From positions 1 to 48,575 of IMG/VR virus record IMGVR_UViG_2582581022_000007: 48,575 nucleotides of DNA; one strand, 5' to 3'. Below, in pieces: positions 10,380-48,575 of the stretch. The notes under the pieces are model-generated. The model saw nothing but the letters and a program-made list of their open reading frames with translations. It was not told the DNA's origin and did not search any database. Made by a program: the position numbers and the translations under genes. The stretch comes from a virus. Its lineage: Duplodnaviria > Heunggongvirae > Uroviricota > Caudoviricetes. Numbering within the stretch: the stretch's first letter is position 1; each line of letters starts with the position of its first letter.

Positions 10380-10394
10380 GAATGGAGAAAGAAA

Positions 10395-31125: not shown

Positions 31126-31142
31126 ATTTTAGCCGCTAAAAT
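31126..31142. promoter_or_regulatory. 17-bp perfect palindrome ATTTTAGCCGCTAAAAT (KorB operator-like), copy 1
   Basis: Matches the TTTAGC(C/G)GCTAAA IncP KorB operator consensus as I recall it; ~55 bp upstream of gene 31195. Confidence 0.5.
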
Positions 31143-31194
31143 TTACTGAATCTTTACTGGTTTTATCTGGATTGCATAAAAAGGAAAAATAAAA

Positions 31195-31824
31195 GTGCCT
31201 GAGTTGTCTGTAATTATACAATGGATGAATCAATACCCTAAGACCGGCTGGCTATTGCTGTGTATCTATATTGCACTCGGTGTAGTTCGTCACAGAGTAA
31301 TTAATGCTGAATCTGGAAGTGTATTTCGTGGACTACTCAATCTTAGGAAGCGCCGGCTAGAGCAAATGCTGACACAGCCATATTTGAATAAAAATGCGGT
31401 CCGTCTGGCAAAGCGTGAGCTTCGTCAGCGCAGCCTTTATCGGCTCACAGGCTTGTATAATTATCGGCTGCAGGATTTGGCTGTAATAATGTGTGATCGT
31501 TATGGGTTGCGGGCTGGTTATCTCAAGCCGTGGCGTAACTGGCTCGAAGAACGGGATGGACGGATTGTGTTCAACAGGAAATGGCATTGTTTTCGCTGGC
31601 GTCTTTTTCTGGTAGGTCAGATTGTAAACACAGTTCTACTAATCTTATTCATTATGTATATAGTTTCTCATTCTTCGGCCGAAATGATCGCACCGCTTAT
31701 GTTACTCTTCATGCTTGTATGGTGGTTTCCTTGGCTAATGATCACCTCGGTACCTACCCCTAGGTGGACTCGCGAAATGGAAGTCTATCTTGAGAAATTT
31801 AACGCTGAACAGACCATGGTTTAA
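31195..31824 (+). CDS. hypothetical membrane protein
   Basis: 209 aa, several hydrophobic segments; GTG start with AAGGA RBS; flanked by palindrome copies 1 and 2. Confidence 0.45.
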   Translation: MPELSVIIQWMNQYPKTGWLLLCIYIALGVVRHRVINAESGSVFRGLLNLRKRRLEQMLTQPYLNKNAVRLAKRELRQRSLYRLTGLYNYRLQDLAVIMCDRYGLRAGYLKPWRNWLEERDGRIVFNRKWHCFRWRLFLVGQIVNTVLLILFIMYIVSHSSAEMIAPLMLLFMLVWWFPWLMITSVPTPRWTREMEVYLEKFNAEQTMV

Positions 31825-31961
31825 ACTGTTCTTTGTTACCATGCATTCAGAGTGAATTGTCAGAGTTTTGGAAGATTCCATCCTACGAGTAATACTCACA
31901 AGGTAATTCACATAATCAATAGGTTAAGTCATAAGCTTCTTGACCCTACATGAGAAGACGA

Positions 31962-31978
31962 ATTTTAGCTGCTAAAAG
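31962..31978. promoter_or_regulatory. KorB operator-like palindrome, copy 2 (ATTTTAGCTGCTAAAAG)
   Basis: One central and one terminal mismatch; flanking ~15 bp also resemble copy 1. Confidence 0.4.
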
Positions 31979-32401
31979 TTTGGGCATATTTGGACTTAAA
32001 TGCCACCGACATGATTCTAATAATTAAGCCAGTACCTAATGAGCCAAGAGAAGACAACTGTAAACGCCCCTTGGCTTAGACTTGCTTTCAGGAAAGCGAA
32101 TGCTTTTTATGGTCAGGGACAAGTAAGGGGATGAGCCATTGCATAACCATAAAACCAATTCGTTCTATGTCATTACAGATCGGCTTCAGTGATTTACTGG
32201 TGAGGTAGTATCACTGTGATCCGTTTTGCATAACGCTTACAGCTGCGCTACAAACAATAAACTATAATACTGTATTTTCAAAATCATCAATTTGAAGCAG
32301 GGTAATCGCGAAAAACCCTCGTAAGTGGCTGGTTATAATTCAATAAAGTGGATGATATTAAGACTTAAACTGCCACCATAATAGCTCGTGGATATACTAT
32401 T

Positions 32402-33373
32402 TTAAATATAAAATTCTTTCCTCACAGACGCTAAGGCCTTGGACACAGCCTGCTTTGTCATAGTTGTGTAGTGATTTTTTTCTAAAACCTGTGCGGTTTC
32501 AAACTGGTTAAAACCTTGGTGTTTTAATATGATTATTTTTTTCTTAGTATCAGTGAATTTGGAGTCAACCATTCGTCTGGCAATATTCCTAAGTTTATCT
32601 AGATCTGCTGGGGTTAAAGTTTGACCCTGCATCCACTCATGAAAATAGGTATCAATCAATATATCCCCTGTGTTTGCGTTAGCTTTATGCGGTTTAGCGC
32701 ATTGCCGTCTAAGCCTTATTAATTCTTTATTGAACTGTTCGAGAGACCGCTTTCCTTGTCTGTATTTGGGATTCCATAGACCATTGGTGAGTTTGGGCCT
32801 ATGGTCAGAACAATATCGATGACTAAGGACCTGTTTTTCATGAACGGGGAACTCATTATCGTTAGCAACAAATTCTGATATCTCACTGATCAACTTGGAA
32901 AATTCGGTTAGATTACCGCAGAACTCGCAATAACCGAGCTTACGCTGTGAATTTATAGTTACTCCTTTTGCAGGAGAGGATTTCTTCGGCCGCTTGGATG
33001 CGCACTCACTGACTAATTCAATAAGAGACTCAATCGTAGCGGTAAAGCATTTATCAAGAGAAGTTTGTTGATCTAAAGTCAGAACGAAATTACGCAAAAG
33101 AAGTCTTTGTGCCTGTACTACGACGTTTAAGCCCACTTTTTTAAGTACATCACTAAATCCTAGATTTACTCCAGAAATGTAGTCTTTATGACTTGGTGGC
33201 AGGGAATTTACATAAGCAGCTACTGCTGGATCAATAACTTCCTGTATGAGACGCAGTATTGGATACCTCCGTGAAAATATGGAGTACGGATAACTACGCT
33301 CTACAAATAATTTAATTGCAGCTGCAACTGTGAGGTCACAGCCTTCCCAGATAGTAATTTTCATGTCAACCAT
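32402..33373 (-). CDS. hypothetical regulator-like protein with Cys/His cluster and C-terminal HTH-like segment
   Basis: AT-rich ORF divergent from alpA; CEFCGN...CSDH cluster; start set at first ATG not overlapping alpA; no convincing RBS. Confidence 0.4.
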   Translation of the reverse strand: MVDMKITIWEGCDLTVAAAIKLFVERSYPYSIFSRRYPILRLIQEVIDPAVAAYVNSLPPSHKDYISGVNLGFSDVLKKVGLNVVVQAQRLLLRNFVLTLDQQTSLDKCFTATIESLIELVSECASKRPKKSSPAKGVTINSQRKLGYCEFCGNLTEFSKLISEISEFVANDNEFPVHEKQVLSHRYCSDHRPKLTNGLWNPKYRQGKRSLEQFNKELIRLRRQCAKPHKANANTGDILIDTYFHEWMQGQTLTPADLDKLRNIARRMVDSKFTDTKKKIIILKHQGFNQFETAQVLEKNHYTTMTKQAVSKALASVRKEFYI

Positions 33374-33450
33374 TTTAGCCAATGAATAGGTTTTAGCAAG
33401 TGGTAATGCTTGGCATTGTATAGGCCTGATTGGAAACAGGAGGAAGGCAG

Positions 33451-33681
33451 ATGCAAACAAAGGCACATAGCACGCTCATTAACAGAAAAACACTTCTGGA
33501 AATGATCCCATTGTCAGCCCGCACTATTTATAACCTTGAACAGCGAGGCGAGTTTCCTCGCCGTATAGCACTTACTAGTCGAAATGTTGCATGGCAGTTA
33601 TCCGAAGTGGAACAGTGGATTGCGGATCGTAAATCAGCAATGTTTAAAGCGGCCAGACCCGGTGTTGTTTTAGGTAGGTAA
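33451..33681 (+). CDS. alpA: AlpA-family transcriptional regulator (prophage CP4-57 regulatory protein type)
   Basis: ~76 aa with LLEMIPLSARTIYNLEQRGEFPRRI HTH; AGGAGGAAGG RBS before ATG 33451. Confidence 0.75.
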   Translation: MQTKAHSTLINRKTLLEMIPLSARTIYNLEQRGEFPRRIALTSRNVAWQLSEVEQWIADRKSAMFKAARPGVVLGR

Positions 33682-33686
33682 CAGCA

Positions 33687-34544
33687 ATGTCATTGAACAT
33701 AATGGAAGCATTTGAAGCTAAGCCACAACCAATTGATTACGTCTTGCCTAATTTGGCTATTGGTACTATCGGAGCGATTGTTTCTCCGGGAGGCGCTGGA
33801 AAGTCAATGCTGGCATTACAATTGGCTGTGCAGATTACTTGTGGTGTAGATCTTTTAAACTTTGGTGAATATCCGACTGGGTTGGTGGCATATTTACCTG
33901 TGGAGGACTCTGAAACCATCGTTCACCATCGTTTATATGCGTTGGGAAAATATCTAACAGCACGTCAGCAGCAGATTGTAGCTGATAAGCTACTGGTCGA
34001 ACCTTTGGTAGGGAAGTGTCCAAATATTTTCTTGCCGGATTGGAGCAACTTGATCAATGAAGTTTCAAAAGGTAGACGTTTAATAATTTTGGATACTCTT
34101 CGCCGTTTCCACCAGGAGGATGAGAATAATAGCGCAGCAATGTCCAAAGTCATTGGAAAGCTAGAAGGTATTGCTGCTGATACTGGATGTTCGATTATAT
34201 TTCTACACCATTCAAACAAAGGCGCTGCCACGATGGGGGTTGGTGATATACAGCAGGCAAGCAGGGGTAGTAGCGTCCTGGTTGATAATATACGGTGGCA
34301 ATCTTATCTGGCGGGCATGACCGCCTTGGAAGCGAAGACGTATGGTATTTCTGATGATGTTCGAGGTCAATTTGTTAGATTTGGAATAAATAAAGTAAAT
34401 TATGGAGAACGTGCGCCAGATCGTTGGTTACAGAGACATGAGGGGGGAGTATTAAAAATAACGGCGCTCAGCTCGAAGAATAATAAAAAGCTTACTAAAG
34501 AAAGAACATCTACCTGGAGTGGCGCTGACAATGACAACTGGTAA
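33687..34544 (+). CDS. RecA-fold P-loop ATPase (AAA_25/RepA-like)
   Basis: Walker A IVSPGGAGKSMLALQLA, Walker B-like RLIILDTL, IIFLHHSNK; typical partner of alpA in integrative islands. Confidence 0.6.
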   Translation: MSLNIMEAFEAKPQPIDYVLPNLAIGTIGAIVSPGGAGKSMLALQLAVQITCGVDLLNFGEYPTGLVAYLPVEDSETIVHHRLYALGKYLTARQQQIVADKLLVEPLVGKCPNIFLPDWSNLINEVSKGRRLIILDTLRRFHQEDENNSAAMSKVIGKLEGIAADTGCSIIFLHHSNKGAATMGVGDIQQASRGSSVLVDNIRWQSYLAGMTALEAKTYGISDDVRGQFVRFGINKVNYGERAPDRWLQRHEGGVLKITALSSKNNKKLTKERTSTWSGADNDNW

Positions 34545-35313
34545 TAAAGTGGCACCCACAAGTACAGCTTGGCAAGCCCGAGTAATTCTGTACCAGCCAA
34601 GCCAGCGTCCTAAGGAGGTGAAGGGACAATGGATGGAGACTAGTTTTGGTCGTTGTCGTGTTACCGGACGGCTCGGACAGCGTCATGCCGATATCGTAGA
34701 GACAATATTATATGTTGCCGAGCAACGTCGTGAAATTTCTGATGGTGGAATCGAATTATTAGTAGATCCAGCGAAAGTACGCCGAACGCTATCCGATGCA
34801 CAATACAGTTATGGTCGTATACAGAAATTGCTTTTAGATCTGCGCGTCGCAACAGTTGAAATTATAACGCCAGAGCTGGAGAAAAGCGGCGACTGTATAA
34901 TAGGGGGACTGATCGATCATGTAGTGCCATCACCTATGACGCGTCCAGATCCTTTGACTGGGGGAGAACGCCGTTTATGGCGTGTCCGTCTGGGTGTTGC
35001 ATTAGCGATGTTACTCAAAAAAGATTTGCCATTTTATTATCATCCTGGCCCCATAGCTCGGCTACAACATGGTATTAGCCAGGCAGTCGCTCGTCATGTC
35101 TTAACCCATAGTAATAATCCTTTAGGAGGGTGGTATATGGATACGTTGATATTAGCAGTATGCGGTGAAGGAACGAGTAATATGACTTTACGTAACTATC
35201 GTCGGAGATTGAAAGAAGATTCCGTGCAATTGCTGGAAATTGGAATTGATTTGAACGGTTCTAGGATAAAACGTGTCACAACGGCCCGATATTGTGTCAC
35301 AACGGCCCGATAG
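34519..35313 (+). CDS. hypothetical protein, possibly replication-associated (3' end overlaps iteron array)
   Basis: 264-aa ORF; last ~40 nt lie within 21-bp iterons; start codon uncertain (GTG 34519 or ATG 34531). Confidence 0.35.
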   Translation: MALTMTTGNKVAPTSTAWQARVILYQPSQRPKEVKGQWMETSFGRCRVTGRLGQRHADIVETILYVAEQRREISDGGIELLVDPAKVRRTLSDAQYSYGRIQKLLLDLRVATVEIITPELEKSGDCIIGGLIDHVVPSPMTRPDPLTGGERRLWRVRLGVALAMLLKKDLPFYYHPGPIARLQHGISQAVARHVLTHSNNPLGGWYMDTLILAVCGEGTSNMTLRNYRRRLKEDSVQLLEIGIDLNGSRIKRVTTARYCVTTAR

Positions 35314-35356
35314 CGTGTTATAGCGGCCCGGTAGCGTGCTACAGCGGCCCGATTTT
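35273..35356. repeat. iteron-like array, 4 tandem 21-bp repeats (GTGTCACAACGGCCCGATATT and variants)
   Basis: Units at 35273, 35294, 35315, 35336 share GTG-yyAyAgCGGCCCGrTa core; followed by AT-rich region with GATC sites. Confidence 0.7.
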
Positions 35357-35564
35357 TTACTATTCAGCAGTATTTACAGGATCGTTCAGGATCTACAGTC
35401 TTTGAAATCACCTGCCTGAGCAGGCGCTTTCAAATCTAGAATCGGCCAAAGGCCGATGGTTGTACGCCAGAAGAAGAGATTACTTACTCGTTTGGTATAT
35501 TGACACTTGAGGTAGGTTTTATGACATATGAGGTACGCCCCTAGCTTTAGGCATAGGGAGGAAG

Positions 35565-35581
35565 ATTTTAGCCGCTAAAAT
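35565..35581. promoter_or_regulatory. KorB operator-like perfect palindrome ATTTTAGCCGCTAAAAT, copy 3
   Basis: Identical 17-mer to copy 1; ~400 bp upstream of mobC-like gene. Confidence 0.5.
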
Positions 35582-35970
35582 CTGCAATGCACATGCTTTG
35601 ACAATGTAAGTAAAAAAGTGCATGAGAAAATAAAATATTTCTTACAATATATCGAAACATAAATACAGTTGGTGGACGCCCATTTATAACTACTAAAGGT
35701 CATTTTCAAAAGGGAGAAATATAGTTTCCTTGCAAGAAACACATTTGCTGCAGATCTTTACCCGAGTAATCCTATATTAATACGCTAAGAAAACACATCC
35801 TGTACACTGAAATACACATTGATGTGCACAGATATACTACGGCAACAGGAGGGCAGGACATGTAAAGTAGGCCCACCGCTACGGTGTTCCAACTTTACCA
35901 CTCCCTATTCGCCGCATCGCGGCTCAAGGGCGTCCTGCTCTGCCAGGCTACCGCCTGTATGGAGAGCTAT

Positions 35971-36324
35971 ATGAAAGTTACTCAGACTAGAAAAAATAGT
36001 ACGCCAATAAAAGTTTATTGTTTACCCGAAGAAAAAATTCTCATCCAAGAAAATGCAGAAGCATCTGGATTAAGTGTTGCCTGTTTTGTTCGTAGAGTTG
36101 CAATGGGTTATCAGGTTGATTCTATCGTAGATATAAAACAGGTTAATGAACTTAGCCGAGTAAACGCTGATCTTGGAAGACTTGGCGGATTACTTAAATT
36201 ATGGCTCGCAAATGATCCTCGAACAGTTGATTTTTCACCCACCCTGATAAGAACCTTGCTTGCGAAAATAGAATCAACTCGGCAAGAACTAAGGAACATT
36301 ATGGATAAAATCTTGGATAAATAA
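35971..36324 (+). CDS. MobC-like ribbon-helix-helix mobilisation accessory protein (putative)
   Basis: 117 aa from ATG 35971 (GGAGAG RBS); IKVYCLPEEKILIQENAEASGLSVACFVRRVAMG resembles relaxosome RHH proteins. Confidence 0.45.
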   Translation: MKVTQTRKNSTPIKVYCLPEEKILIQENAEASGLSVACFVRRVAMGYQVDSIVDIKQVNELSRVNADLGRLGGLLKLWLANDPRTVDFSPTLIRTLLAKIESTRQELRNIMDKILDK

Positions 36325-36405
36325 ATGTGTGGTTTCCTATATACCTGCGTCTGTTAAAAGACAGTGTGTTAAATATTACTGAACTGATGAAAAAGAGGTG
36401 AGCAA

Positions 36406-37200
36406 ATGAATTTAATGTTCCGAGTGGTTTCATTACAAAGAGGGATTTTAGCCGCTAAAAAAGCTTTAATAGTTCCTTTCGTGGCGTCCGTCATGGCATT
36501 ACCGGTTAAGGCCGGAATTCCCGTTATTGATGGCACTAATGTGGTTCAGACCACAATCAGCGCAGTTAACAACGTTCAGGCTGTGACTAAACAGATCCAG
36601 CAGTACCAGACGCAGCTGCAGCAGTATGAAAACATGCTCAAAAATACCGTCGCACCTGCGGCCTATATCTGGGATCAGGCCAATTCAACCATCAACAAAT
36701 TGTTGCAGGCGCAGGACACTCTTAATTACTACAAAAATCAGGCCGGGAGTCTTGATTCATATCTGAAACGTTATCAGGACGTGAATTACTACCGCTCATC
36801 ACCGTGCTTTAACAGTAATGTTGAATGTACTGCAGATGAAATCAGCGCACTGCGTAAAGCAGAACAGAACAGCTCTGAGGCGCGTAAAAAGGCCAATGAC
36901 GCCGTTTTTAAGGCTCTTGATGAACAGCAAGAAACACTGCAAAGCGATGCTGATAACCTGGCAGATTTGCAAACTCAGGCAACCGGCGCACAAGGGCAAA
37001 TGGAAGCTATTCAGGCCGCTAACCAGCTTGCAAGTGCTCAAACGAACCAGCTGCTGCAAATCCGCTCGCTCCTGGTAGCCCAGCAAAACGCTGCAGCAAC
37101 ACTGGCACAGGCTCAGGCAGATAAAGAATCACAACAGATAGCCGCTGATGAAAAAGCGTTAGCTGGAGAGAATACACCAAGCCCGAAGCGAATTTGGTGA
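36406..37200 (+). CDS. trbJ: TrbJ/VirB5-like type IV secretion protein
   Basis: Signal peptide, Q-rich coiled-coil (QIQQYQTQLQQYENMLKNT), ~260 aa, followed by small lipoprotein and TrbL-like gene as in IncP trbJ-trbK-trbL. Confidence 0.6.
   Translation: MNLMFRVVSLQRGILAAKKALIVPFVASVMALPVKAGIPVIDGTNVVQTTISAVNNVQAVTKQIQQYQTQLQQYENMLKNTVAPAAYIWDQANSTINKLLQAQDTLNYYKNQAGSLDSYLKRYQDVNYYRSSPCFNSNVECTADEISALRKAEQNSSEARKKANDAVFKALDEQQETLQSDADNLADLQTQATGAQGQMEAIQAANQLASAQTNQLLQIRSLLVAQQNAAATLAQAQADKESQQIAADEKALAGENTPSPKRIW
36445..36461. promoter_or_regulatory. KorB operator-like palindrome, copy 4 (ATTTTAGCCGCTAAAAA), inside trbJ 5' end
   Basis: 16/17 palindrome; encodes ILAAK within the putative signal peptide. 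Confidence 0.4.
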
Positions 37201-37211
37201 GGAAACGCAGA

Positions 37212-37385
37212 ATGAAAGATAATCTTTTGATTGTATTTATTCTGATCAGTTTATTGGCCATATGTTCTTGCGATAAAAATGATAAAGATTGTTTATCGAC
37301 GCCAGATAATAAATTTGATGAAAATAAATACGATAAATGTGCTCTACGGAGTAATAATAAACCAAGCCCTAAACGAGAATGGTAA
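37212..37385 (+). CDS. trbK: small lipoprotein, TrbK-like (entry exclusion) by position
   Basis: MKDNLLIVFILISLLAICSC signal/lipobox-like N-terminus, 57 aa, between trbJ-like and trbL-like genes. Confidence 0.45.
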   Translation: MKDNLLIVFILISLLAICSCDKNDKDCLSTPDNKFDENKYDKCALRSNNKPSPKREW

Positions 37386-38779
37386 TCATGAAAATAGCAA
37401 GTAAGCTCACCTTTCTAGGTATCATAATTTTCTTTTCTATAAATGCCTATGCTGGTCAATTAGATAGTAGCGGGCTACTTGATTCTTTATTAGATAAGTT
37501 TCAACAAGTAGCCAGTACATGGACAACAGTAATTGCTGACTATGCAAATTGGCTCTTCTGGGGGCTGGTATTAATAAGTATGGTTTGGACATTTGGTATG
37601 ATGGCAATGCAAGGAGAAGGGTTGACAGGCGTACTTGCTGAAATAGTTCGCTTTTTTGCCGTCATTGGTTTTTTTTATTATCTTTTAATCAACGGCCCAT
37701 CCATATCGCAATCCATAATTAATTCAATGAGGCAACTTGCAGCAAACGCTTTAGGAATAAGTACTGGTATTTCGCCCTCAAGCATAGTTGATATGGCGTT
37801 TGCGATATTAACAAAGGTCAGTTCAGCCGCATCAATTTGGTCGCCAATGATATCCACCATTATGATAACAGTAGCGATAATCGTTTTGGTAGTGATGTCC
37901 CTTATAGCGATAAATATGCTAATCATGTTGGTTTCTGCATGGGTGTTATGTTATGCAGGAGTTATATTGCTTGGATTTAGTGGTTCGAAATGGACCTCTG
38001 ATATAGCAATTAATTACTTACGAACTGTTTTATCGATTGGCATTCAATTATTCACGATGACATTAATTATTGGGATTGGACAATCATTTATAGATCAATA
38101 TTTTTCTCTTATTAAAGATGATGTTCCTGATCTTAATAGTCTTATCGTTTTGCTTCTGGCGTCAATTATCCTGTTAGTATTAACGAATAAGCTACCACTG
38201 TTGTTATCAGGTGTTGTAGGAGGAGCTTCTTTACAAGGGATTGGTGGATTTGGGGCGGGTATGATTACTGGCGCTGCCGCTACTGCCATCAGCGGTGCTG
38301 GAGCAATTGCAATGGGGGCATCAGCTCAAGTCAGCGGCGGAGCCTCTGCATTAAAGGCAGCGTTCGAGTCTGCGCAAGCTGCCATGGCCGAGGAATCTGG
38401 TTCAGGTGGTGGAGGCGGTTCCGGTGGAGGATTTGGCGTCGGGGAAGATACCGGTTCTGTAGATACTTCTGGAGGCCAACCCTCAGGCAGTTCCGGTGGT
38501 TCGTCAGCATGGAGCAGTTCAGTTAGCTCCAGCGGAGGAAGTCAGGGGTTTGCTTCATTCTCACGAGCTGGCCGCATGGCAAGCCATATGGGAAGCATCA
38601 TGGCCAACGGAGCTGCTGAGTACCAGAAAATGAAGCGAAGTAGCAATTCTTCTCGTGTCCAACAAACTATTGGAGGGGAGTTGGCGACTCAGATACGTAA
38701 GCAGACAGCTACTCATCGGGATAACCGCGAACATGATGATTTTGCCGATGATAGCTTATCGGGTAATAATAAATCTTGA
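37379..38779 (+). CDS. trbL: TrbL/VirB6-like polytopic membrane protein
   Basis: 466 aa, many transmembrane segments, Gly/Ser-rich C-terminal tail (SGSGGGGGSGGGFGVGEDTGS). Confidence 0.65.
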   Translation: MVIMKIASKLTFLGIIIFFSINAYAGQLDSSGLLDSLLDKFQQVASTWTTVIADYANWLFWGLVLISMVWTFGMMAMQGEGLTGVLAEIVRFFAVIGFFYYLLINGPSISQSIINSMRQLAANALGISTGISPSSIVDMAFAILTKVSSAASIWSPMISTIMITVAIIVLVVMSLIAINMLIMLVSAWVLCYAGVILLGFSGSKWTSDIAINYLRTVLSIGIQLFTMTLIIGIGQSFIDQYFSLIKDDVPDLNSLIVLLLASIILLVLTNKLPLLLSGVVGGASLQGIGGFGAGMITGAAATAISGAGAIAMGASAQVSGGASALKAAFESAQAAMAEESGSGGGGGSGGGFGVGEDTGSVDTSGGQPSGSSGGSSAWSSSVSSSGGSQGFASFSRAGRMASHMGSIMANGAAEYQKMKRSSNSSRVQQTIGGELATQIRKQTATHRDNREHDDFADDSLSGNNKS

Positions 38780-39514: not shown

Positions 39515-40747
39515 GTGAGCCAAGAAGATGATGATAAGTATCCAGCTAGCGCCGTATCCTCATGGAGCGGCTTCGTTTATCAAGGGAAAATTGCATTATA
39601 TCACTCCCTCAAGATTATTCACGATGGCGATCTAGACTTTGAGCTTCAGCTAGACAGTAGTGACGACTTCGCTATTTATAAAAATGGAAAACTACACACA
39701 GCCCATCAAGTCAAAGCGAAGATAAGTAAATATCGAAGTGGTTACACCAAGGCGCTGGAACAGTCTACTTTAATCGAACACGACAAAATCCAAGGGACAA
39801 CGCGTTACTTCCATGTATCTGTTCCTCTAAATAATACGGACGATCATAGAGGCGCTAGCGGAGAAATAGTAAAATTCTATCGCTATGGGGATAATTATTA
39901 TTGTGGTTTGGGTGAAATTGAAGGGCTTACCAAAGAACTAATAAAAAAAATATGTAATAAGCAGCACATCATTGTCAGTGATAACCTTATAAATTTTAAC
40001 TATTGTTTACTTTCTGAAAAAATCAGCACCAAGGCAATATACAATCATAAATTAAATCAGGTTGGCGGAATTTCAGAAAACAGAGCAGCATATGAGGGTC
40101 GTATCAAGGCCAGAAATATTCTAGAAGACCTGCTAACCGAAAACCCCTATCAGAATAGGGACTACTATGCAGTTGCATTAAAGGCCAGGCTTCAAACTCA
40201 TCTGGAAGAGAGGTTGGATCAGGCGCTTCCAACAATGAGTGACACTACTTACGAGAGAGCTAGATGTCTGTGTGAGCACATTCGCGAAACTCATATCAAT
40301 GAATTGAAAGCCCTATGCCAGATGATGAAGCCCTCCGAGCGATTTCAAGACGTTCAGACGAACGACATCAGGCGATACACCAAGCTTATCCAGGCTATTT
40401 CGGTGGAGCCTATATTCAACCACCTCCCACACTACCTTGACAGCGAAAATCGATTTTACGTACCTACCGCTCTTGATGTAGATGAAAGCGAAGAGTGTGA
40501 GTTTGACATGACCCGTGAAATGAAAAACAACGGGGATCTGCTGAGACTACTTTTTGAGTATAACCATCTAATCGCCAGCAAAGCAGAAGCCTCATTCACC
40601 TTTAATACAAAATTTACAAACTCAGATGACTTCGACAACAAGCAGACCACTGAAAAGCTCGAAAGCAACATCACCAAGTCGCTATGCATTAGCGTGATAA
40701 CAAAAGACGATGCGGAGGAACGACTGAATGATAAAGCAACTCATTGA
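39515..40747 (+). CDS. candidate defence effector, LmuA-like (N-terminal PD-(D/E)xK-like nuclease motifs)
   Basis: GTG start with AAAGGAG RBS; GFVYQGKIALYHS...DLDFELQLDSSDDF...HQVKAK suggests D...D...(E/Q)xK nuclease; first gene of coupled operon. Confidence 0.45.
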   Translation: MSQEDDDKYPASAVSSWSGFVYQGKIALYHSLKIIHDGDLDFELQLDSSDDFAIYKNGKLHTAHQVKAKISKYRSGYTKALEQSTLIEHDKIQGTTRYFHVSVPLNNTDDHRGASGEIVKFYRYGDNYYCGLGEIEGLTKELIKKICNKQHIIVSDNLINFNYCLLSEKISTKAIYNHKLNQVGGISENRAAYEGRIKARNILEDLLTENPYQNRDYYAVALKARLQTHLEERLDQALPTMSDTTYERARCLCEHIRETHINELKALCQMMKPSERFQDVQTNDIRRYTKLIQAISVEPIFNHLPHYLDSENRFYVPTALDVDESEECEFDMTREMKNNGDLLRLLFEYNHLIASKAEASFTFNTKFTNSDDFDNKQTTEKLESNITKSLCISVITKDDAEERLNDKATH

Positions 40748-41393
40748 TGAAGCACTTGTTGCACATGGCTTTGTTAGTAAACGCGACTTGGACAACACAA
40801 GCTTTTATATTCGCGAGTCTGGATCTGCTATCAGGTTTGCAGTTCTATATAATCTTGATGACCTTCCTGACCCAGCCGAATTGAATAATAGAATCAATCA
40901 TCTTGCTCCTAGTGAATTTCTCAGAAACCCAAGCTTTAAGAAAAACTGCGACTTGATTTGTATTTATCGTCTTGATGTTCTGGCCAATTTCAAAGATCAC
41001 GAAGAAGAGATTTTCGCAATTGAAGAAGATCCGCACTTCTATAAAAAGTATGTTCTCTATTACAGTATCGCGGAAGAAAGTGCACTCACTAATTTCACCT
41101 ACGACAAACTGGTATCTGTTATTGCTGACAAAAAAGAATTTCTTGAATACAAAGAAAATCCTCTTAACGCCACACAATACAGCTTTGCGGCGAAGACCTT
41201 TATCAAGCTTCCTTTTTTAGAGTTACCTAACCATCAAGAAAATCTTGTGTCCTTGAGGTTACAGGCAGCAGAGGCCGTTGCACAAGCCAGCCTGAACGAT
41301 ACGTATTTGACTATCCAGAAAGTCACAGATAAAAACGCCGACGAAATTATCAAGGAAATGATTAAAAATGAACTGGCAAATATCCAAGATTGA
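40728..41393 (+). CDS. small middle-gene protein of the operon (LmuC-like by position)
   Basis: 221 aa; overlaps upstream gene by 20 nt and downstream gene by 26 nt; GGAGGA RBS. Confidence 0.45.
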   Translation: MIKQLIDEALVAHGFVSKRDLDNTSFYIRESGSAIRFAVLYNLDDLPDPAELNNRINHLAPSEFLRNPSFKKNCDLICIYRLDVLANFKDHEEEIFAIEEDPHFYKKYVLYYSIAEESALTNFTYDKLVSVIADKKEFLEYKENPLNATQYSFAAKTFIKLPFLELPNHQENLVSLRLQAAEAVAQASLNDTYLTIQKVTDKNADEIIKEMIKNELANIQD

Positions 41394-43701
41394 AGTCTCT
41401 AGCTTCAAAGCTTTCAAGCATATCTATTTGGATCTTGACAAGTCGTCTTTGCTAACTCTGGACGGCCCTAACGGTTATGGTAAAACAAGCATATTCGACG
41501 CAATCGAACTATTGCTTACCGGCCAGATCAGTCGAATACAAAATCTATTCAAGACATTACTAACCAAGAACAAGAGAGACTACGCGGACAATCTTTTCTG
41601 GAATAGTCGCTCAGGAGAGAACGATCTCTGCATTAAGATTGAATTTACTAATGATGGTCGCAAACTTGTCTTAGCTAGACATTGCCAAGCTGCAATATTC
41701 AAAAAACCAGTAAACAATCGTGCAGACAAATACGAAAATTTCAAGCTTTATGAGCTGCCAGAATTCGAATCGTCTGAATTCACTAAGATCAATCTGCGCG
41801 ATAATAATTTCCTTGATGAAATTTTCGGAAAGAATTTCAGGGAAAACTTCTCCTTTCTTAACTATTTGGAGCAAGGGCAAAACCGGCTGTTACACACTCG
41901 GGTAGACGAACGGAAGGATAAACTAGGAAACCTATTTAATATCAGTGATATCGAAGCCGAGATTGAAAACTGCAACACTGTATACAGCAAACTCACAAGG
42001 TACATCAATAATCCTGAACGCACGGCAAAAGCTGCATCTCTTATTGAAGAAATAGCCATCCTAAAGGACACATTGCAGGCAGTGGCTGGGAACATTAAGT
42101 ACAAAAAACTCTCGACGACTGATGTCCAACCGGGGTGGGACAAGGAGATAATGTTCTCTACGTATTCGTCAGTGGACCATGCAGCCTACCAGGAATCAGT
42201 TCGTAAGATTATTGCCCTTCTACCACTCAAAGCCACGATAAAAACTAGGGTCCATAACGAGAGAATTGATGCCTACATCGGTCGTAATGAGGAATCTCTG
42301 AGAAGTCTGGCGCAGTTTGGTAAAGACCTGGGCAAGCTTGATGTGCTTGACGCTATCAAGAAAGGGATTGATGAGTTAGAACGTTCAGCAAGTATCATTA
42401 AACGTGGTGCTACGGTGATCAAGCTCGAAGAAGCTCGTTCATTACAAGGTTGGGCGGGTGGGCGTCTTGAGTGGTTTGAGTTACAAATTAATTCTCGAAA
42501 CAGCTTACAAGTAAAAAGTAGCGCCAACACGAACGTTGTAGCCGAATTGGAACGTCTAAAAAGGCAGTTACTTAGGGAACATAAAAAGTCTTATCCCGAC
42601 GAGCAGTTGTGCCCTCTCTGTGGTGCTGACTGGGAAGATCACAAATTAATGGCAGATGCTATTGAAGCAAGAACTAAGCAGATCTCTGAATCATTAGGAC
42701 AGGACGGTAAGGACTTAGTTAACCTTATCGCTGCTATGGACGCAGAGCTGAAACTTATCGACTCCTTTATACAAGACAGCCTGAAACTCCTTACGCCTAC
42801 ATTTGAATCGAACCTTCATGTAGGGCTGACCAGAATTAAGCTTCGGCTCCCGGCAATAACCCAAGTACTGGAAAAGCTGCAAAGCGAAAATATTCAATTT
42901 ACTGATTCATTCACGGAAATTGATGACTTAGTAGATGAGCGACTTGAAAAGCTCAAAGAGATTCTAAGAAATAAAAAACAGGTTGAGGCTGATGCCTTAA
43001 CGCTGCCGGAGGACTGGCGAGAAACCATAAATAGCTCTTTTAAAGATCTGCAGGACTTCTACATAGTCACGGCTGAAGACCTAAAGGGTAAAGAGCATTA
43101 CATATCGATTAAAGCTAACGAGGCTCAAAGTTCTAGGCTCCAAACTTGTATTAAAGATCTTAATCTTATCGAAAAAGAAACCATGGCAGCTCAAAAAGCA
43201 CAAGGTAAAATCGAAAAGCTCCGCAACACTTTGAAAAAGACCGAGCAGAACTATACTGACCAAACAATTTCGGCTATTGAGTTCATATTCCACATTTATA
43301 GTGGTCGGCTGATCCAAAACTACCAGCGTGGCCTGGGCCTGTTTATTGAGAGCCGCGAAGGTACGCAACTGAGGTTCCTGACTGCTGAGAAGTCTGAACA
43401 CGACGCAGTCATGTCCATGAGTTCAGGTCAGGTGTCTGCGCTCAGCCTTGCTTTCTTCCTCGCGCTCAACAAAGTCTATGCACGGGTTCCTCTCATATTG
43501 ATTGACGACCCGTCGCAATCACTGGATGAAGTAAACGTTGCTTCGTTGACCGATCTACTCCGTTGCGAACTCAAACATTGCCAGTTGGTTGTCTCATCGC
43601 ACGAGGACGATATCTCGGCCTATATGCGCTACCGGTTCGACAGAGCCGGTTTGACAACAAGTTCGCTCAACATGCAGCTTTTGGCGAAAGAAGCTTCGTA
43701 A
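41368..43701 (+). CDS. SMC/Rad50-like ABC ATPase with mid-protein CxxC (zinc-hook-like); LmuB-like
   Basis: Walker A GPNGYGKTS (res ~33-41), CPLCG near res ~415 in long charged helix-rich middle, C-terminal SGQVSALSLAF signature, LILIDDP Walker B, SSHED. Confidence 0.75.
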   Translation: MNWQISKIEVSSFKAFKHIYLDLDKSSLLTLDGPNGYGKTSIFDAIELLLTGQISRIQNLFKTLLTKNKRDYADNLFWNSRSGENDLCIKIEFTNDGRKLVLARHCQAAIFKKPVNNRADKYENFKLYELPEFESSEFTKINLRDNNFLDEIFGKNFRENFSFLNYLEQGQNRLLHTRVDERKDKLGNLFNISDIEAEIENCNTVYSKLTRYINNPERTAKAASLIEEIAILKDTLQAVAGNIKYKKLSTTDVQPGWDKEIMFSTYSSVDHAAYQESVRKIIALLPLKATIKTRVHNERIDAYIGRNEESLRSLAQFGKDLGKLDVLDAIKKGIDELERSASIIKRGATVIKLEEARSLQGWAGGRLEWFELQINSRNSLQVKSSANTNVVAELERLKRQLLREHKKSYPDEQLCPLCGADWEDHKLMADAIEARTKQISESLGQDGKDLVNLIAAMDAELKLIDSFIQDSLKLLTPTFESNLHVGLTRIKLRLPAITQVLEKLQSENIQFTDSFTEIDDLVDERLEKLKEILRNKKQVEADALTLPEDWRETINSSFKDLQDFYIVTAEDLKGKEHYISIKANEAQSSRLQTCIKDLNLIEKETMAAQKAQGKIEKLRNTLKKTEQNYTDQTISAIEFIFHIYSGRLIQNYQRGLGLFIESREGTQLRFLTAEKSEHDAVMSMSSGQVSALSLAFFLALNKVYARVPLILIDDPSQSLDEVNVASLTDLLRCELKHCQLVVSSHEDDISAYMRYRFDRAGLTTSSLNMQLLAKEAS

Positions 43702-43856
43702 AAGCCACCTTGGCCACCTATTAGAGCGGGTGGCTAAATTTAGTGTTTCACTACAAATAGCATAAAAGGATGCAAAAATTCGGCGAATTTATTCCACGTG
43801 TTTTTTTAAATTCAATGTATGTTAAAATTGTGTCTATTTTATATCAGGATTGTCAA

Positions 43857-44744
43857 ATGAACTCAATTGTTACAGCTAAGGCATTGTCAGCAAGGAAAAA
43901 GTTTGCAGGCCGTCAATGGTTCTACGATTTTAGAGAACTAACTCAGCGTATTGATGAACAAAATGCCCAAAAAATTGCAGATAGCCTTTCCGTTCGATAT
44001 TCAAAACTAACAAAATTTTGGGATAAGGAAAAGAATTCAGAATGGATGTGCAGAATTTATTTATCGGCAAAAATGGTGATGAACGCCACAATACAGATTA
44101 ACTCCATGGAGTTTGCAAAAGAACGCAATATCCGTATCACAACTCCTTATTTAACATATTATTCCCTCCTTTCACTTCTTCGAGGAATCGTCTACACATT
44201 ACCAGAAGTGGAATGGGAGAATGGAAAGCTTATTGAGATATCGCATCACAAAGCTATAAATTTGGCATTCGACCATCTTTCGGCATTTAATAAGGACTTA
44301 TCTGAAGAGTTTAAAAATATCACGCTCACAGCCAAGGCATATCGTGAATTAATTTCGTATCGCTCCCCAACGTCGGGTGACTCTATAATTGAATCAATAA
44401 GCATCGAAGCGATTGCCACATTGCTAGCTGAGGTGGCACAATTTAACTCTGAAATTTTGGAGTCATCCATTATTAAGAAAGCAGATGGCGCTTCGTTTGA
44501 GTTTCTTAGTAAGTATATAAAAGAGTTATCTGGCATTACTATCGAAGGTATCAATTTCTTCGATCAAGAAGATGCTTATAGGTTAAACTATCTTCGCCGA
44601 AAATACCCTCTACCTCCAAATGTTCTTCATGTCATGACGGAAGGACATGTAGAGGATTTTTTTGGGGCATGGCTACCTAGTGAAGAAATTGAAGGTGCTT
44701 TTGACCCAGATGAAAATTGGGGAGTTATTTTTGATATCCCATAG
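43857..44744 (+). CDS. hypothetical protein (orphan gene between two defence loci)
   Basis: 295 aa from ATG 43857 (AGGA RBS); follows hairpin after previous operon; no motifs I can assign. Confidence 0.4.
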   Translation: MNSIVTAKALSARKKFAGRQWFYDFRELTQRIDEQNAQKIADSLSVRYSKLTKFWDKEKNSEWMCRIYLSAKMVMNATIQINSMEFAKERNIRITTPYLTYYSLLSLLRGIVYTLPEVEWENGKLIEISHHKAINLAFDHLSAFNKDLSEEFKNITLTAKAYRELISYRSPTSGDSIIESISIEAIATLLAEVAQFNSEILESSIIKKADGASFEFLSKYIKELSGITIEGINFFDQEDAYRLNYLRRKYPLPPNVLHVMTEGHVEDFFGAWLPSEEIEGAFDPDENWGVIFDIP

Positions 44745-45064
44745 TTAATTAATTGCGAAGATTATTTTTTTTGTTAATCCAGAACTAAATTGGAATGAAA
44801 AAATATGGGGTTGGGTAGTAAATAGAGCCAATTCCCCATATCCTTCATGGCAAGAATGTTTAAGCGGTATATAACACGTTTATGGACATTCATGAGTTAT
44901 GATTTTTATAAATTAGCATTTCTAAAATCAACTTGGATATTGTAAACCTAGGTCAGTTGACCAAATCTATTACGACACTATACTATACATTTGTCTTTCG
45001 TCTAAATGCCGCTAGGTCAATATCAACGGTATTGACCTTTGCTTCGAATGAATCTTTATAAATA

Positions 45065-45916
45065 CTATGGGTAAATTAAATTGTGCTTAGTATATAAGAA
45101 CTGGACTACACCTTGGGAGTTTAAAATTCCATGAATAAAGATTGAGAACCAGTTGTTTGGTGTGCTGTACGACTGATCATATCTATTTAATGCATCATTC
45201 AAATATCTCGAAAAGTCAGCAATGGTTGGAGTATTGGCTAATGGTAACGTTTGAATTTTTAAGCTTGGGTTTTGTGTCGTTGTATCCCATTCACCTTCTA
45301 GCCAATTAATAATTCCTGATGGGAGAACAACTTTCTCCGTGTGGTATTTTATGCTGTCTATTTCTAAGTGCTGTGGTAAAACATAAGCTATTTCAATTTT
45401 AGCTTTTGGAAATTGAGGGTCTTGAGTAATGTTACACGACAAAAGCCTCTGATTAAGAAAAACGTCATAATAAGGATGTAGTATCCTTTTATTTCCATCC
45501 GTTAAATTCGTTTTTCGTTTGCTGTTGCAATCACAAGCTGGAACTAAATTTTTTGAATACACAGAAAAGCAAGGGTAGTCATCTTTAGGAAACAGGTGAT
45601 CAAGGGTTCCTGTTTTTAATGAACCGCACATTGGGCAAACGTTTGGTGAAGATGCTCTTAAATCATCAATGAACTTTAAGTCAGTTGGTGGTGAAGCGTA
45701 GTGCTTCTTCAATGCTATTGATAAATCATTGGTAATGTTGACGTTCGCAACTGATAGTGCGTTACCATTATTAGCGTCATAGTCTTGGTATCCATTTAAA
45801 ATGATCTGTAACTCATTGTGTAAATGCGGATAACTTGTTCTATGAAGCCTGTCTCTTTGAGACGTTGTCGTTATTTTCTCAATATCATTTACCGCAGGTA
45901 AAGGAAGCTTTTTCAC
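45065..45916 (-). CDS. HNH endonuclease (PtuB-like)
   Basis: CPMCGS...TLDHLFPK...PACDCNSKR HNH/zinc-finger motifs; GTG start 2 nt after upstream ATPase stop with GGAGGA RBS. Confidence 0.75.
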   Translation of the reverse strand: MKKLPLPAVNDIEKITTTSQRDRLHRTSYPHLHNELQIILNGYQDYDANNGNALSVANVNITNDLSIALKKHYASPPTDLKFIDDLRASSPNVCPMCGSLKTGTLDHLFPKDDYPCFSVYSKNLVPACDCNSKRKTNLTDGNKRILHPYYDVFLNQRLLSCNITQDPQFPKAKIEIAYVLPQHLEIDSIKYHTEKVVLPSGIINWLEGEWDTTTQNPSLKIQTLPLANTPTIADFSRYLNDALNRYDQSYSTPNNWFSIFIHGILNSQGVVQFLYTKHNLIYP

Positions 45917-45918
45917 AA

Positions 45919-47385
45919 TTAATCCTCCATCATGCGTTTTAATCGCATTAAGGCTGATAGCGAAATTTCATTGCCTAGCTGTTCTTCTACGTCAGAAAAG
46001 CTCTTGCCTTTCACTCTATCGTAGAGTTTTTCTGAAAGTCTTATTTCAGTATCTTCCTGAAAGATAAACTGTGAAATAGAATCTACAGTTGCTCCAAATG
46101 TCGGTAACCTCGGTTTATCAGTTACGAGCCTGTGATCTGATATTGAGAGAACAGCTACCTGTTCATTTGATACTTCACGGACAAAATACGCCGAATGAGT
46201 TGCTATAAGTGCCTGTGAGCCTGTTTTTTCTAATAGGAAGTCTAGTAGTCCTATAAAATCAACAATCATGTTAGGATGCATGTGCGTTTCAGGTTCATCC
46301 ATCAATACAAACGTACCGTTTTCAATGAACAAGCAACTCAGTAAAGCAACCTTAAAGAAGGTTAACTGCCCGCTACTAAGCGGGTAGAGTCCGTCGCCTC
46401 TTTTTAATTTAGGGTCTAGGTTGTGCTCAATACTAGCCCAACGCATCAAAGAATCTTGCTCTCCGTTTCCTTGTAAAAAACTCCATAGATTGATTGTTCG
46501 TTCATTTTTTAACTGTAAAAAGATATTTCTAGGGTCTAATCCTGCTTGGTAAAGTGAATCCAAAAAAAGGTTTTTTCGAGTATTTTCACCAATCTCATCT
46601 GCACTTCTCGCTAATTGTACGAGGCAATCACCAATATTATGTGTCCCTTTTCGAGTCAGATTTAACCGTCTATAGTAAAGCTTCTGTGTCGCTCTTCTTT
46701 CAGGGGGAAACGTGTTTGAGGTTTCACCAGGTGTCGCTATTGCGATAATACGATTGATTAGAGGTCGTTTACCGTCATCGTCAACCAGTGACAACCCTTT
46801 ATCTTTATATTGCAGTGCCCCTCGGCAAAATGCTTTAAGCGACTCGCTTTTACCAACACCATTTTTACCTATCAACACAAAAATTCGCTTCGGTATGATA
46901 CTTTGGTGGTTGTATTTTAATGACAGTTGATGAAGCTCTTCAAAACCATCTAACTGGAACTTAAGTTCTAACGAGTTGGATATAGCTACATCACTTTTTA
47001 GCTCTTCTCCAATAATAATACTGTTAGCATTGTGATAAGCGAAGAACGGCTCGGAGTTACGCATGAAACCAAGTTTAAATACTTCAGTATCAATGGCTTT
47101 TCTTACCCATTTTTCATCAGTGTCTTTATATTGAGAAAGATCATTTACTGTACGTAAGAATAGTTCGGCTCCTTCGCGGCCAAACCCGTCGTAAAGGTCT
47201 CGGTAGCTTTGCATGTCAGGTAACAAAGTAAAAAATGGAGGAAGGTCCTCTGAATAAACAACCTCTTTATCAGCCTTTTTTAGGTACTCCCATAGCGTTT
47301 CTTTTTTTTCATAAAAGAGAAGCTCTTCCTCTTTGTTTTCTATGTTATCTGGAGCCATAAAGCCAATTAACATTGAGCCTTCCAT
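45919..47385 (-). CDS. ABC-type/AAA_21-like ATPase (PtuA-like) with ~170-aa N-terminal extension
   Basis: Walker A IGKNGVGKS at res ~173-180, signature LSSGQLTFFKVALL, Walker B FVLMDEPETHMHP, H-loop IATHSAYF. Confidence 0.75.
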   Translation of the reverse strand: MEGSMLIGFMAPDNIENKEEELLFYEKKETLWEYLKKADKEVVYSEDLPPFFTLLPDMQSYRDLYDGFGREGAELFLRTVNDLSQYKDTDEKWVRKAIDTEVFKLGFMRNSEPFFAYHNANSIIIGEELKSDVAISNSLELKFQLDGFEELHQLSLKYNHQSIIPKRIFVLIGKNGVGKSESLKAFCRGALQYKDKGLSLVDDDGKRPLINRIIAIATPGETSNTFPPERRATQKLYYRRLNLTRKGTHNIGDCLVQLARSADEIGENTRKNLFLDSLYQAGLDPRNIFLQLKNERTINLWSFLQGNGEQDSLMRWASIEHNLDPKLKRGDGLYPLSSGQLTFFKVALLSCLFIENGTFVLMDEPETHMHPNMIVDFIGLLDFLLEKTGSQALIATHSAYFVREVSNEQVAVLSISDHRLVTDKPRLPTFGATVDSISQFIFQEDTEIRLSEKLYDRVKGKSFSDVEEQLGNEISLSALMRLKRMMED

Positions 47386-47665
47386 TGGTCTATGTTCTTC
47401 GGATATACAAACCTTAAATTCACATCTAATTTTGAACCCGAAGTCATTTCACGATGTTTCAGCAGGTGAGATGATCACTTGACCAGCCAATGGGATATGT
47501 TCAGCGGTTTTGTTCAGGCTAAATAAAACTTTTAATGACTCCATTTATTTCCCTATTTAATCATGACTTTAACAGCAATCAATTTAGCAATTCGGTATAC
47601 CGAAGTAGATGGCAATTTGGACTGAAGTTCTCTCACTTATTCAGTTTCTAGCTGATGGTTGCGAC

Positions 47666-48237
47666 TTAAGGGCGTTTCATTCTAATTCCATTAATTGGGA
47701 TGGTAATCCTCCCATTTTTAACCGCAATTAAACGTAGAAGTCTAGCGGCCATTAATGGTGGTTTTCCTCCATTGGCTTTGTGTGGCCGTTCATAATTGGA
47801 AAAACTAAAACCATTTAGTGGCATAGTCTTACACTTCTTCAAGTGTATCAAATAAATGTTTGCTGACCTAGCTGTACATGATCGTTTTGTTATGTAGTTC
47901 GATGTAGGCATTTTGCTGTGGTTTGCCAGGCTGAGTGTACTCAATACGGATCCCATGCATTTTCGACCATTTTGTAAACCCTTGGCTGATTAACTCAGGC
48001 CCATTGTCAAAGCGTATCGCTAGCAGTTTTGTTCGCCATTCGAGCAATTGATTTAGTGTTCTTATCACTTGCAGTGCCAGCAATGAGAACTCTGCTTTAA
48101 TCGGCAAACCTCGTTTGAAGTCGTCGATGACGTTGAAGAACTGATAGCTGCGTCCATCCGCTAGCAGGTCAGCGCTATGTAAAGTGTATAGAGATAAGTT
48201 GGAGGTACAAGGTGGATAGAATTACATCGGAACCAGC
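47666..48237 (-). pseudogene. IS3-family transposase (DDE integrase core) remnant, N-terminally truncated and frameshifted
   Basis: Two overlapping frames: ...FFNVIDDFKRGLPIKAEF...RFDNGPELISQ...QPGKPQQNAYIE and ...NYERPHKANGGKPPLMAARL; in-frame stop at 48238, no start. Confidence 0.65.
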
Positions 48238-48481
48238 GATGACTTGTGGCAGAGAAACAAGAACTTCGTCAGGACATGAAAGAATCCTCAGCTTGGGCCA
48301 ACGTCGAACTAAACACCGATGAGACGCAAAAAATCAAAAAATTTACGCATGGTATAGATGATGGTATCGATAAACCTTTTCTTTATAACAAGCTGTTATT
48401 TCTATATATTTTTTTCTCGTTGATATTCGAGTGGGAATGATTTGACCCTGCACTATGAATGAACAAAACCCTCTGTTACTA

Positions 48482-48574
48482 CCTGTCTCTTGATCAGATC
48501 TCCTGATCAAGAGACTTCATCACCAGGTAACCCTCAACCATATCCTGAAGTCTGAACCAGCCATCCCACATGAC
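48482..48574 (-). mobile_element. terminus of an IS50-like (IS4-family) insertion sequence with 3' end of its transposase gene; element continues past window end
   Basis: CTGTCTCTTGATCAGATCT at 48482-48500 equals the Tn5/IS50 inside-end repeat as I recall it (two GATC sites); minus-strand frame ends ..GWFRLQDMVEGYLVMKSLDQEI* with stop inside the repeat. Confidence 0.55.
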
Positions 48575-48575
48575 T

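Follow-up and report, generated by a model that had tools for sequence, protein, structure and literature searches.

Stand-alone Septu is a two-gene operon in which the gene for the ATPase PtuA is followed by that for the HNH protein PtuB (E. coli; PDB entries 8EE4, 8EE7, and 8EEA; EcB88). In the EcB88 system, the Walker A lysine is K43 and the Walker B aspartate is D316 (PMC13096335). PtuA and PtuB also occur in the I-A retrons Eco7/Ec78 and Eco4/Ec83. The PtuA of Retron-Eco7 consists of a 63-amino acid N-terminal domain, a Walker A motif at residues 93-100, a coiled-coil at 255-310, a Walker B motif at 391-396, and a C-terminal domain at 484-550, which is helical and binds PtuB; its dimer interface contains N95, E396, H400, and H402 (PMC12673091). 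In retron I-A PtuA, the N-terminal domain or extension of 63-65 amino acids contacts the reverse transcriptase and the noncoding RNA and is needed for defense. Mechanistic precedents for PtuAB are found in several reports (PMC12673091, PMC12819146, PMC13096335, and PMC12640716). PDC-M01 is an unpublished candidate system of the PADLOC authors, which in a Bacillus survey was sometimes called at the same loci as Septu. Our literature search for PDC-M01 returned two genome surveys only and no characterizing paper, and a search for Septu-like systems of an HNH protein and an ATPase returned no match. Here we describe an ATPase-HNH gene pair in a 48,575-nucleotide stretch of DNA assigned to Caudoviricetes (IMG/VR record IMGVR_UViG_2582581022_000007, positions 1 to 48,575), which as a whole is referred to as the window. 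The pair is an ordinary member of the catalogued, experimentally uncharacterized Septu-like family PDC-M01, and the ATPase gene of the window carries a premature stop codon.

Results

Both genes lie on the minus strand, where the list of open reading frames (ORFs) of the window gives a 488-amino acid ATPase with an ATG start and a 283-amino acid HNH protein with a GTG start (Table 1). Candidate-system models were taken from PADLOC-DB v2.0.0. The best PADLOC match of the ATPase was PDC-M01A (PDLC04242, 3.2e-51, residues 49-471 of the 488-amino acid ORF), and PDC-M01A models made up eight of its nine best matches. For the HNH partner, PDC-M01B was the best match (PDLC04270, 2.2e-35, residues 2-277 of 283), and 24 of the 25 PADLOC matches listed were PDC-M01B models. 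The genes are adjacent and on the same strand, and these best models cover both proteins over nearly their full length. Structurally, no difference from PDC-M01 was apparent, and what sets the window copy apart is the premature stop in gene A. In Vibrio, Pseudomonas, and Rhizobium, remotely homologous pairs were likewise called PDC-M01. The family is thus already in PADLOC, and proteins identical to those of the window are already in public databases.

Other collections added little to this assignment. In Pfam, the ATPase matched AAA_21 (3e-13) and AAA_15 (3e-11) with its C-terminal lobe only, and zero Pfam or NCBIfam families were matched by the HNH partner at E<=0.01. Weak matches of the C-terminal ATPase lobe to AriA, AbiLi, NsnB, and mad3 were all far below PDC-M01A. 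Gabija GajA, PARIS AriA/AriB, OLD, AbiL, and MADS mad3 share the AAA_15/AAA_21 ATPase superfamily with the window protein; however, the effector here is a separate HNH protein and not a Toprim or DUF4435 domain. PHROGs families of unknown function matched the ATPase and the HNH protein over their full length, and no match to the pair was obtained with tblastn against phages. The validated Vibrio systems GAPS4 and GAPS6 were considered as members of the same family and rejected, since they contain PD-(D/E)xK and PIN/TPR proteins.

The junction of the two genes reads ...ATG ATG GAG GAT TAA tt GTG AAA AAG, which leaves a gap of 2 nucleotides and places a GGAGGA 6 nucleotides 5' of the GTG, within the final ATPase codons. 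Every homologue of the HNH protein starts with MKK, and the GTG start is therefore correct. In homologous ATPase/HNH gene pairs, the genes overlap by 1-4 nucleotides. The ATPase motifs (Walker A GKNGVGKS, the Q-loop Gln, LSSGQ, FVLMDE-PETHMH, and THS) did not vary among 22 homologues with identities down to 45%. The CPMCG, DH, NLVPAC, and CDCN motifs of the HNH partner were invariant in 23 homologues down to 36% identity. A profile of the HNH family aligned these motifs with the HNH motif of 4h9d, the Gme HNH endonuclease of Geobacter, and H107 is the predicted catalytic histidine. An earlier note, made from the letters of the window alone, had described two minus-strand genes 2 nucleotides apart with the ribosome-binding site of the HNH gene inside the 3' codons of the ATPase gene; it had also listed Walker A, ABC signature, Walker B, and H-loop motifs in the first protein and HNH/zinc motifs in the second. 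All of these readings were confirmed at the junction and in the two alignments.

Homologues of the ATPase are almost all about 541 amino acids long, compared with 488 for the ORF of the window. Upstream extension of the frame reached an ATG at 47544, and the extended frame ran parallel to the 541-amino acid proteins of Klebsiella, Salmonella, Serratia, and Providencia from end to end, codon 32 excepted. The translation of 45919-47544 aligned throughout to homologue P0001, with few substitutions plus the stop, and 28 of the 31 residues ahead of the stop were identical to homologues P0015/P0023. Trp32, which is part of the motif SWNDFG, was invariant across the 22 aligned homologues, whereas the window has TGA at this codon. 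Therefore, the 488-amino acid ORF is the stretch of the ATPase gene that follows a nonsense mutation (W32*), a stop upstream of the ORF that the earlier note had missed. Residues below are numbered on the intact protein.

The TGA is real and no read error, because the W32* allele was present on 22 independently assembled contigs (NCBI, ENA, and Logan) and because RefSeq holds records of the mutant allele. These records start at an internal Met (WP_028120232.1, 484 amino acids, Met58; WP_077757482.1, 488 amino acids, Met54). An exact-protein look-up led to E. coli GCA_901482685.1, which was 100% identical to the window over 4.6 kb. Stop-bearing loci were 99.9-100% identical to the window, compared with ∼98.3% for loci with an intact gene. 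Megablast of 44900-47500 gave no match in complete E. coli genomes nor in phages. Selenocysteine at the TGA was considered and rejected, since the homologues have a Trp codon there. Apart from the stop, the residues in which the window allele differs from P0001 match the family consensus. The gene appears free of further decay, and since the rest of it is consensus-like, the mutation looks recent.

Because TGG is changed to TGA at Trp32, the ATPase copy of the window is probably inactive or strongly hypomorphic. The locus would yield only a product without residues 1-53 or the product of rare UGA read-through, and W32* would also lower HNH expression through translational coupling and polarity. 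In a rival explanation, the copy is functional despite the TGA, owing either to read-through by tRNA-Trp or to a restart at Met54 or Met58 that gives a working product. On the 22 contigs, the allele is kept within at least three different flank configurations, and both the HNH gene and the remainder of the ATPase gene are intact and close to the consensus; however, this persistence fits equally well with a recent spread of the island, either clonal or by hitch-hiking. Decoding of the UGA by tRNA-Trp would restore the native residue, and the stop is a UGA followed by A, in E. coli a leaky context decoded by this tRNA, but UGA read-through normally does not exceed a few per cent. A restart at Met58 could make use of an AAGG a few bases ahead of it. 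Met54, however, is not preceded by a strong Shine-Dalgarno sequence, and a restart product would be devoid of three of the four N-terminal beta-strands and of the invariant SWNDFG motif. We consider it unlikely that the window copy works and keep to a probable loss of function. The UGA-A at Trp32 might be a natural read-through "dimmer" that holds a toxic module at low dose.

For comparison with Septu, structures were predicted from the family alignments, with a mean predicted local distance difference test score (pLDDT) of 77.8 for the ATPase and 90.4 for the HNH partner. In a Foldseek search of the PDB, the top 33 matches of the ATPase model were all PtuA chains (retron Ec78/Eco7, Ec83, and E. 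coli Septu) with E-values from 9e-10 to ∼3e-6, and the first match other than PtuA was an SMC head at 2.7e-6. On the predicted models, PtuA and PtuB were the nearest structures to the two members of the pair. For the ATPase, sequence searches of the PDB with single sequences and with profiles gave only generic ABC lobes and marginal PtuA matches. The residues N228, E417, H421, and H423 are spaced like the Eco7 PtuA interface residues N95, E396, H400, and H402. The models thus present the pair as a distant structural relative of PtuAB.

Shared with stand-alone Septu are the two-gene order of ATPase and then HNH protein, an ABC/AAA_15-type ATPase, the DEPExH(x)H motif, and a C-terminal helical domain. 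The differences concern both proteins. The family of the window has an extra N-terminal domain of ∼190 amino acids, so that the Walker A lysine is K232 compared with K43 in Septu. Walker A and Walker B are ∼184 amino acids apart compared with ∼273 in Septu, and according to the alignment and the AlphaFold2 model, no helix longer than ∼16 residues lies between them. Compared with PtuA, the ATPase gains an N-terminal domain and lacks the coiled-coil insertion. In the partner, the catalytic His is residue 107, after an 88-residue helical N-terminal region, compared with H75 in Septu. At the sequence level, the ATPase is marginally similar to Septu, and no similarity could be detected for the partner.

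A rival explanation is that the pair is simply canonical Septu PtuA/PtuB, with an N-terminal region that is ordinary for PtuA. The gene order and the nearest structures agree with it, the PADLOC model PtuA1 (PDLC00282), the best Septu model on the ATPase, matches at 1e-25 and spans most of the protein, and some loci are called by PADLOC as Septu as well as PDC-M01. However, with the curated PtuA model NCBIfam NF041760, the ATPase scored 32.5 bits, where the cut-off is 500, and in the C-terminal lobe only, a narrow test of PtuA membership since this model is specific to the PtuA of retron Ec78. The PtuB chains in solved retron structures carry the deposited name "TIGR02646 family protein," whereas the partner in the window has neither this match nor one to any other NCBIfam model. 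When taken alone, the N-terminal domain is matched by PDC-M01A models and by no PtuA model, and characterized PtuA differs in the position of Walker A (here 226-233), in the spacing to Walker B, and in its long helices. We therefore regard canonical Septu as a very improbable description. Fold and gene order speak for a relation to Septu; the PtuA/PtuB sequence models and the PtuA domain plan do not fit the pair.

The I-A retrons offer a precedent for an N-terminal extension of PtuA that fits the module to a sensor. The N-terminal domain of the window protein is three times longer than this extension and unrelated in sequence, and the coiled-coil is missing. No reverse transcriptase gene was found in the flanks within the window or in seven homologous contexts of the pair, and an Rfam scan of the window gave no retron RNA and nothing in the region of the pair.

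The N-terminal domain was modeled by AlphaFold2 as a four-stranded beta-sheet followed by helices. Its conserved motifs are SWNDFG, IGF, FFT(L/M)LP..YR, NDL, and FKLGFMRNSEPFFA. The domain had no Pfam match at E<=10 and no sequence match in the PDB; the PADLOC models that cover it are four PDC-M01A models. A profile search with the domain, run against 1.84 billion representative proteins, recovered 239 clusters, nearly all with proteins of 530-580 amino acids and with the domain at residues 1-190. Because the same architecture recurs across the 239 clusters, the domain is a conserved hallmark of the family and no fusion peculiar to the window locus.

These results bear on the central claim of the earlier note, a Septu-like ATPase and HNH operon whose ATPase has an atypical N-terminal extension. 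The likeness to Septu holds for the fold and the gene organization and fails for canonical Septu by sequence, where PDC-M01 is the best match. The extension is indeed atypical when compared with characterized PtuA, in which Walker A is found at K43 (EcB88) or 93-100 (Eco7). The proposal that the ATPase of this locus may be a fusion or variant is not supported, since the domain belongs to essentially every member of the family of ∼239 clusters and is conserved in the 22-sequence alignment. The N-terminal region is thus a normal part of PDC-M01A ATPases and not of validated PtuA, which agrees only partly with the refuting case named in the note. The position given for Walker A, residue ∼175 after ∼170 amino acids, applies to the 488-amino acid ORF; in the intact protein, ∼220 amino acids precede the motif.

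Some longer members of the ATPase family carry an added domain ahead of the N-terminal domain, which was AbiJ_NTD3 in homologue P0297 (5e-50) and DUF4062 in P0286 and P0299 (9e-12). In the AbiJ_NTD3 variant (locus L014), a 291-amino acid partner gene follows with a 4-nucleotide overlap. By analogy, the N-terminal domain is most likely a sensing or assembly module, because the retron PtuA extension couples to a sensor and because some members of this family have further sensor-type domains attached to this end. Unassigned extra N-terminal regions of ∼160 and ∼200 amino acids were seen in P0256 and P0381, respectively; the region of P0256 resembles DNA-binding domains of the McrB-N/DUF3578 type by eye only.

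In the genomic contexts examined, the order of ATPase and then HNH gene was constant, with a 2-nucleotide gap or a 1-4-nucleotide overlap and no conserved third gene. In the enterobacterial island, the pair is the last cargo and adjoins a Lamassu/ABC-3C system (CTD1, MComp1, and the SMC-type ATPase LmuB, 5e-83). In Vibrio cholerae, a Tn7-like CRISPR-associated transposon (CAST) carries the pair between tnsC and tniQ-cas. There, in loci L009-L011 at 8001-10513, the 51%-identical pair lies between tnsABC with an HTH/VspR-like gene pair on one side and tniQ-cas8/5-cas7-cas6 on the other; the pair is cargo of the CAST element. A Rhizobium plasmid has the pair next to Gabija (GajA 2e-187, GajB 2e-123), and further contexts are a Pseudomonas chromosome, Aeromonas, and a small metagenomic island with integrase and primase. 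This distribution is typical of defense cargo on mobile elements.

The contexts also bear on the possibility that the pair is not directed against phages and instead is a maintenance or addiction module of mobile elements or a DNA-repair- or restriction-associated ATPase-nuclease. The pair always rides on mobile elements, and PtuAB of retron Ec78 is toxic when unrestrained, a behavior resembling that of toxin-antitoxin systems. The ATPase also has a weak match to TIGR04435 ("restriction system-associated AAA ATPase"), although its 64 bits are far under the cut-off of 300. However, the neighbors are recognized defense systems (Lamassu, Gabija, and the CRISPR-associated transposon), members of the family fuse abortive infection-type domains such as AbiJ_NTD3, and the distribution is patchy with no housekeeping synteny. 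We give little credence to a non-defense function and retain defense as the more plausible role of the pair.

Table 1. Position of the ATPase-HNH gene pair, its motifs, and other features of the window
Feature	Position	Strand	Remarks
Full ATPase gene, PDC-M01A-type ABC/AAA_15-AAA_21	45919..47544	-	541 codons; single in-frame stop at codon 32
Premature TGA in place of Trp32	47449..47451	-	Context TCG TGA AAT
488-amino acid ORF, post-stop part of the ATPase gene	45919..47385	-	From internal Met54
Family-specific N-terminal domain, residues 1-190	46975..47544	-	AlphaFold2 secondary structure and conservation
Walker A, I225-GKNGVGKS-233 (K232)	46846..46872	-	Invariant G226, N228, G231, K232, S233
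ABC signature LSSGQ (389-393)	46366..46380	-	Invariant S390, S391, G392, Q393
Walker B FVLMDE (412-417) and PETHMH (H421, H423)	46276..46311	-	Invariant D416, E417, P418, E419, T420, H421, H423
H-loop T449-H450-S451	46192..46200	-	Invariant columns
ATPase C-terminal helical bundle, residues 487-540	45922..46086	-	AlphaFold2 helices 487-494, 499-511, 516-523, 529-540
Junction: GGAGGA Shine-Dalgarno in ATPase 3' end, TAA, 2-nucleotide spacer	45917..45930	-	Read as translational coupling
HNH nuclease partner, PDC-M01B-type, PtuB-like fold	45065..45916	-	283 amino acids, GTG start, intact
HNH core and zinc-finger Cys: C94-x2-C97, D106-H107, N123, C128-x-C130-N131, H147	45476..45637	-	Invariant columns
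CTD1-domain effector	39515-40747	+	Lamassu
MComp1 middle component	40728-41393	+	Lamassu
SMC-type ABC ATPase, LmuB	41368-43701	+	PADLOC 5e-83
tRNA-Arg(TCT)	5477-5553		In prophage block
C4 antisense RNA	24214-24299	-	Rfam
isrK	24324-24398	-	Rfam
Tyrosine integrase	29881-31071		Low-GC island
AAA_25 protein	33687-34544		Low-GC island
traJ-II RNA element	35851-35949		Low-GC island; Rfam 83.5 bits
TrbL/VirB6 protein	37379-38779		Low-GC island

The Lamassu/ABC-3C system of the window is complete (39515-43701, plus strand); it lies immediately upstream of the ATPase-HNH pair and converges on it. In one related E. coli locus (L005), LmuB is split into parts of 399 and 350 amino acids, and in locus L008 the CTD1 gene is split. 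A 324-amino acid ORF on the plus strand (43770-44744) lies between LmuB and the HNH gene. Its position is kept in all eight related enterobacterial loci (8/8), where it was called as 274-295 amino acids, and it had no significant match in Pfam, NCBIfam, PADLOC, or PHROGs. This ORF may represent either a fourth gene associated with Lamassu or a single-gene system of its own. A promoter and terminator scan of 44600-48575 gave counts not above those of shuffled controls.

Directly upstream of the ATPase gene, two short overlapping minus-strand ORFs were found (47666-48107), of which 47868-48107 contains fragments of an rve integrase core. Together they are probably a degraded IS3-type transposase. 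Since the 98%-identical loci L006-L008 have this remnant too, it is part of the conserved island. Further out, a perfect 13-nucleotide inverted repeat is located at 48485-48515 (GTCTCTTGATCAG / CTGATCAAGAGAC), which we take to resemble the inside end of IS50. The similarity to the loci of other strains stops at this repeat (∼48440-48482), and in locus L001 a 457-amino acid DDE_Tnp_1 transposase of the IS4 family (7507-8880) is encoded just past the end of the window. This looks like a strain-specific insertion sequence at the island edge.

The first part of the window (1-29500) is a podovirus-type prophage block of ∼53% GC, compared with ∼40% GC in the island. Its genes include those for a DUF551 protein, a small terminase, a T7-type portal (PF12236, 2e-187), an epsilon15-type GP7 capsid, an SLT-domain internal protein, and a tailspike-like protein of 903 amino acids. 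The C4 antisense RNA and isrK adjoin a Bro-N-domain gene (23476-24174), and the region 24214-24398 looks like a P1/P7-type immI-like immunity region of the prophage. In the low-GC island that holds the defense genes, the part from 29881 to 38779 contains the integrase, AAA_25, traJ-II, and TrbL/VirB6 features of Table 1, and gene calls in L001 add a NikA-like gene. This suggests an integrative mobilizable element inserted beside the prophage near ppk-ppx-yfgF.

Discussion

The pair is probably a two-gene antiphage module of the PDC-M01 family and a distant relative of Septu, carried as cargo at the end of an integrative island beside Lamassu, and its copy in the window is likely to be without activity or hypomorphic. 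If the pair works like PtuAB, its ABC-type ATPase would form nucleotide-dependent head-to-head dimers or higher oligomers. Its C-terminal helical bundle would hold the helical C-terminal domain of the HNH protein and thereby keep the nuclease inactive; residues 487-540 are the likely docking site for the HNH protein, as suggested by the role of the PtuA C-terminal domain in Eco7. Upon infection, the nuclease would be released or activated and would cut DNA or a tRNA, and phage replication would be aborted. The N-terminal domain would serve to sense the trigger or to build the higher-order assembly.

Several observations weigh against parts of this explanation. PDC-M01 is a computational candidate system, and its defense role is putative. 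The TM-scores of the ATPase in the Foldseek search were only 0.3-0.45, and the E-value margin of PtuA over generic ABC/SMC heads was 2-3 orders of magnitude. In the profile search of the PDB, the E-values of PtuA were 0.009-0.64 and limited to the C-terminal ATPase lobe, and no PtuB chain was among the PDB matches of the HNH partner, even with the profile at E<=10. The ATPase is without the coiled-coil that mediates PtuA-PtuA contacts, and its oligomer may differ. The W32* allele occurs in several strain backgrounds, which could mean that it is tolerated and has residual function, and the other residues of the ATPase are still consensus-like, so that any decay is recent.

A further step can be proposed tentatively, as a possibility that we hold to be rather doubtful. 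PDC-M01 may have branched off from Septu with a mechanism of its own, in which the family-specific alpha/beta N-terminal domain stands in, for assembly or sensing, for the PtuA coiled-coil or the retron-binding extension and the N-terminus is a plug-in site for further sensors such as AbiJ_NTD3 and DUF4062. Such a module would respond to another phage cue and might possibly form another oligomer than PtuA6-PtuB2.

The findings overturn nothing in the current understanding of ATPase-nuclease defense systems. They are mildly of note in that the family is experimentally untouched, one of its domains has no detectable sequence relative, and a nonsense mutation is masked by annotation. The RefSeq label "AAA family ATPase" on proteins of 484 and 488 amino acids hides the premature stop in a 541-codon gene, and counting the window locus as an active defense system is probably wrong. 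For the family as a whole, both partners are linked to PtuA and PtuB by fold and the ATPase differs in its domain plan, and these two features jointly provide a concrete hypothesis for experiments on PDC-M01.

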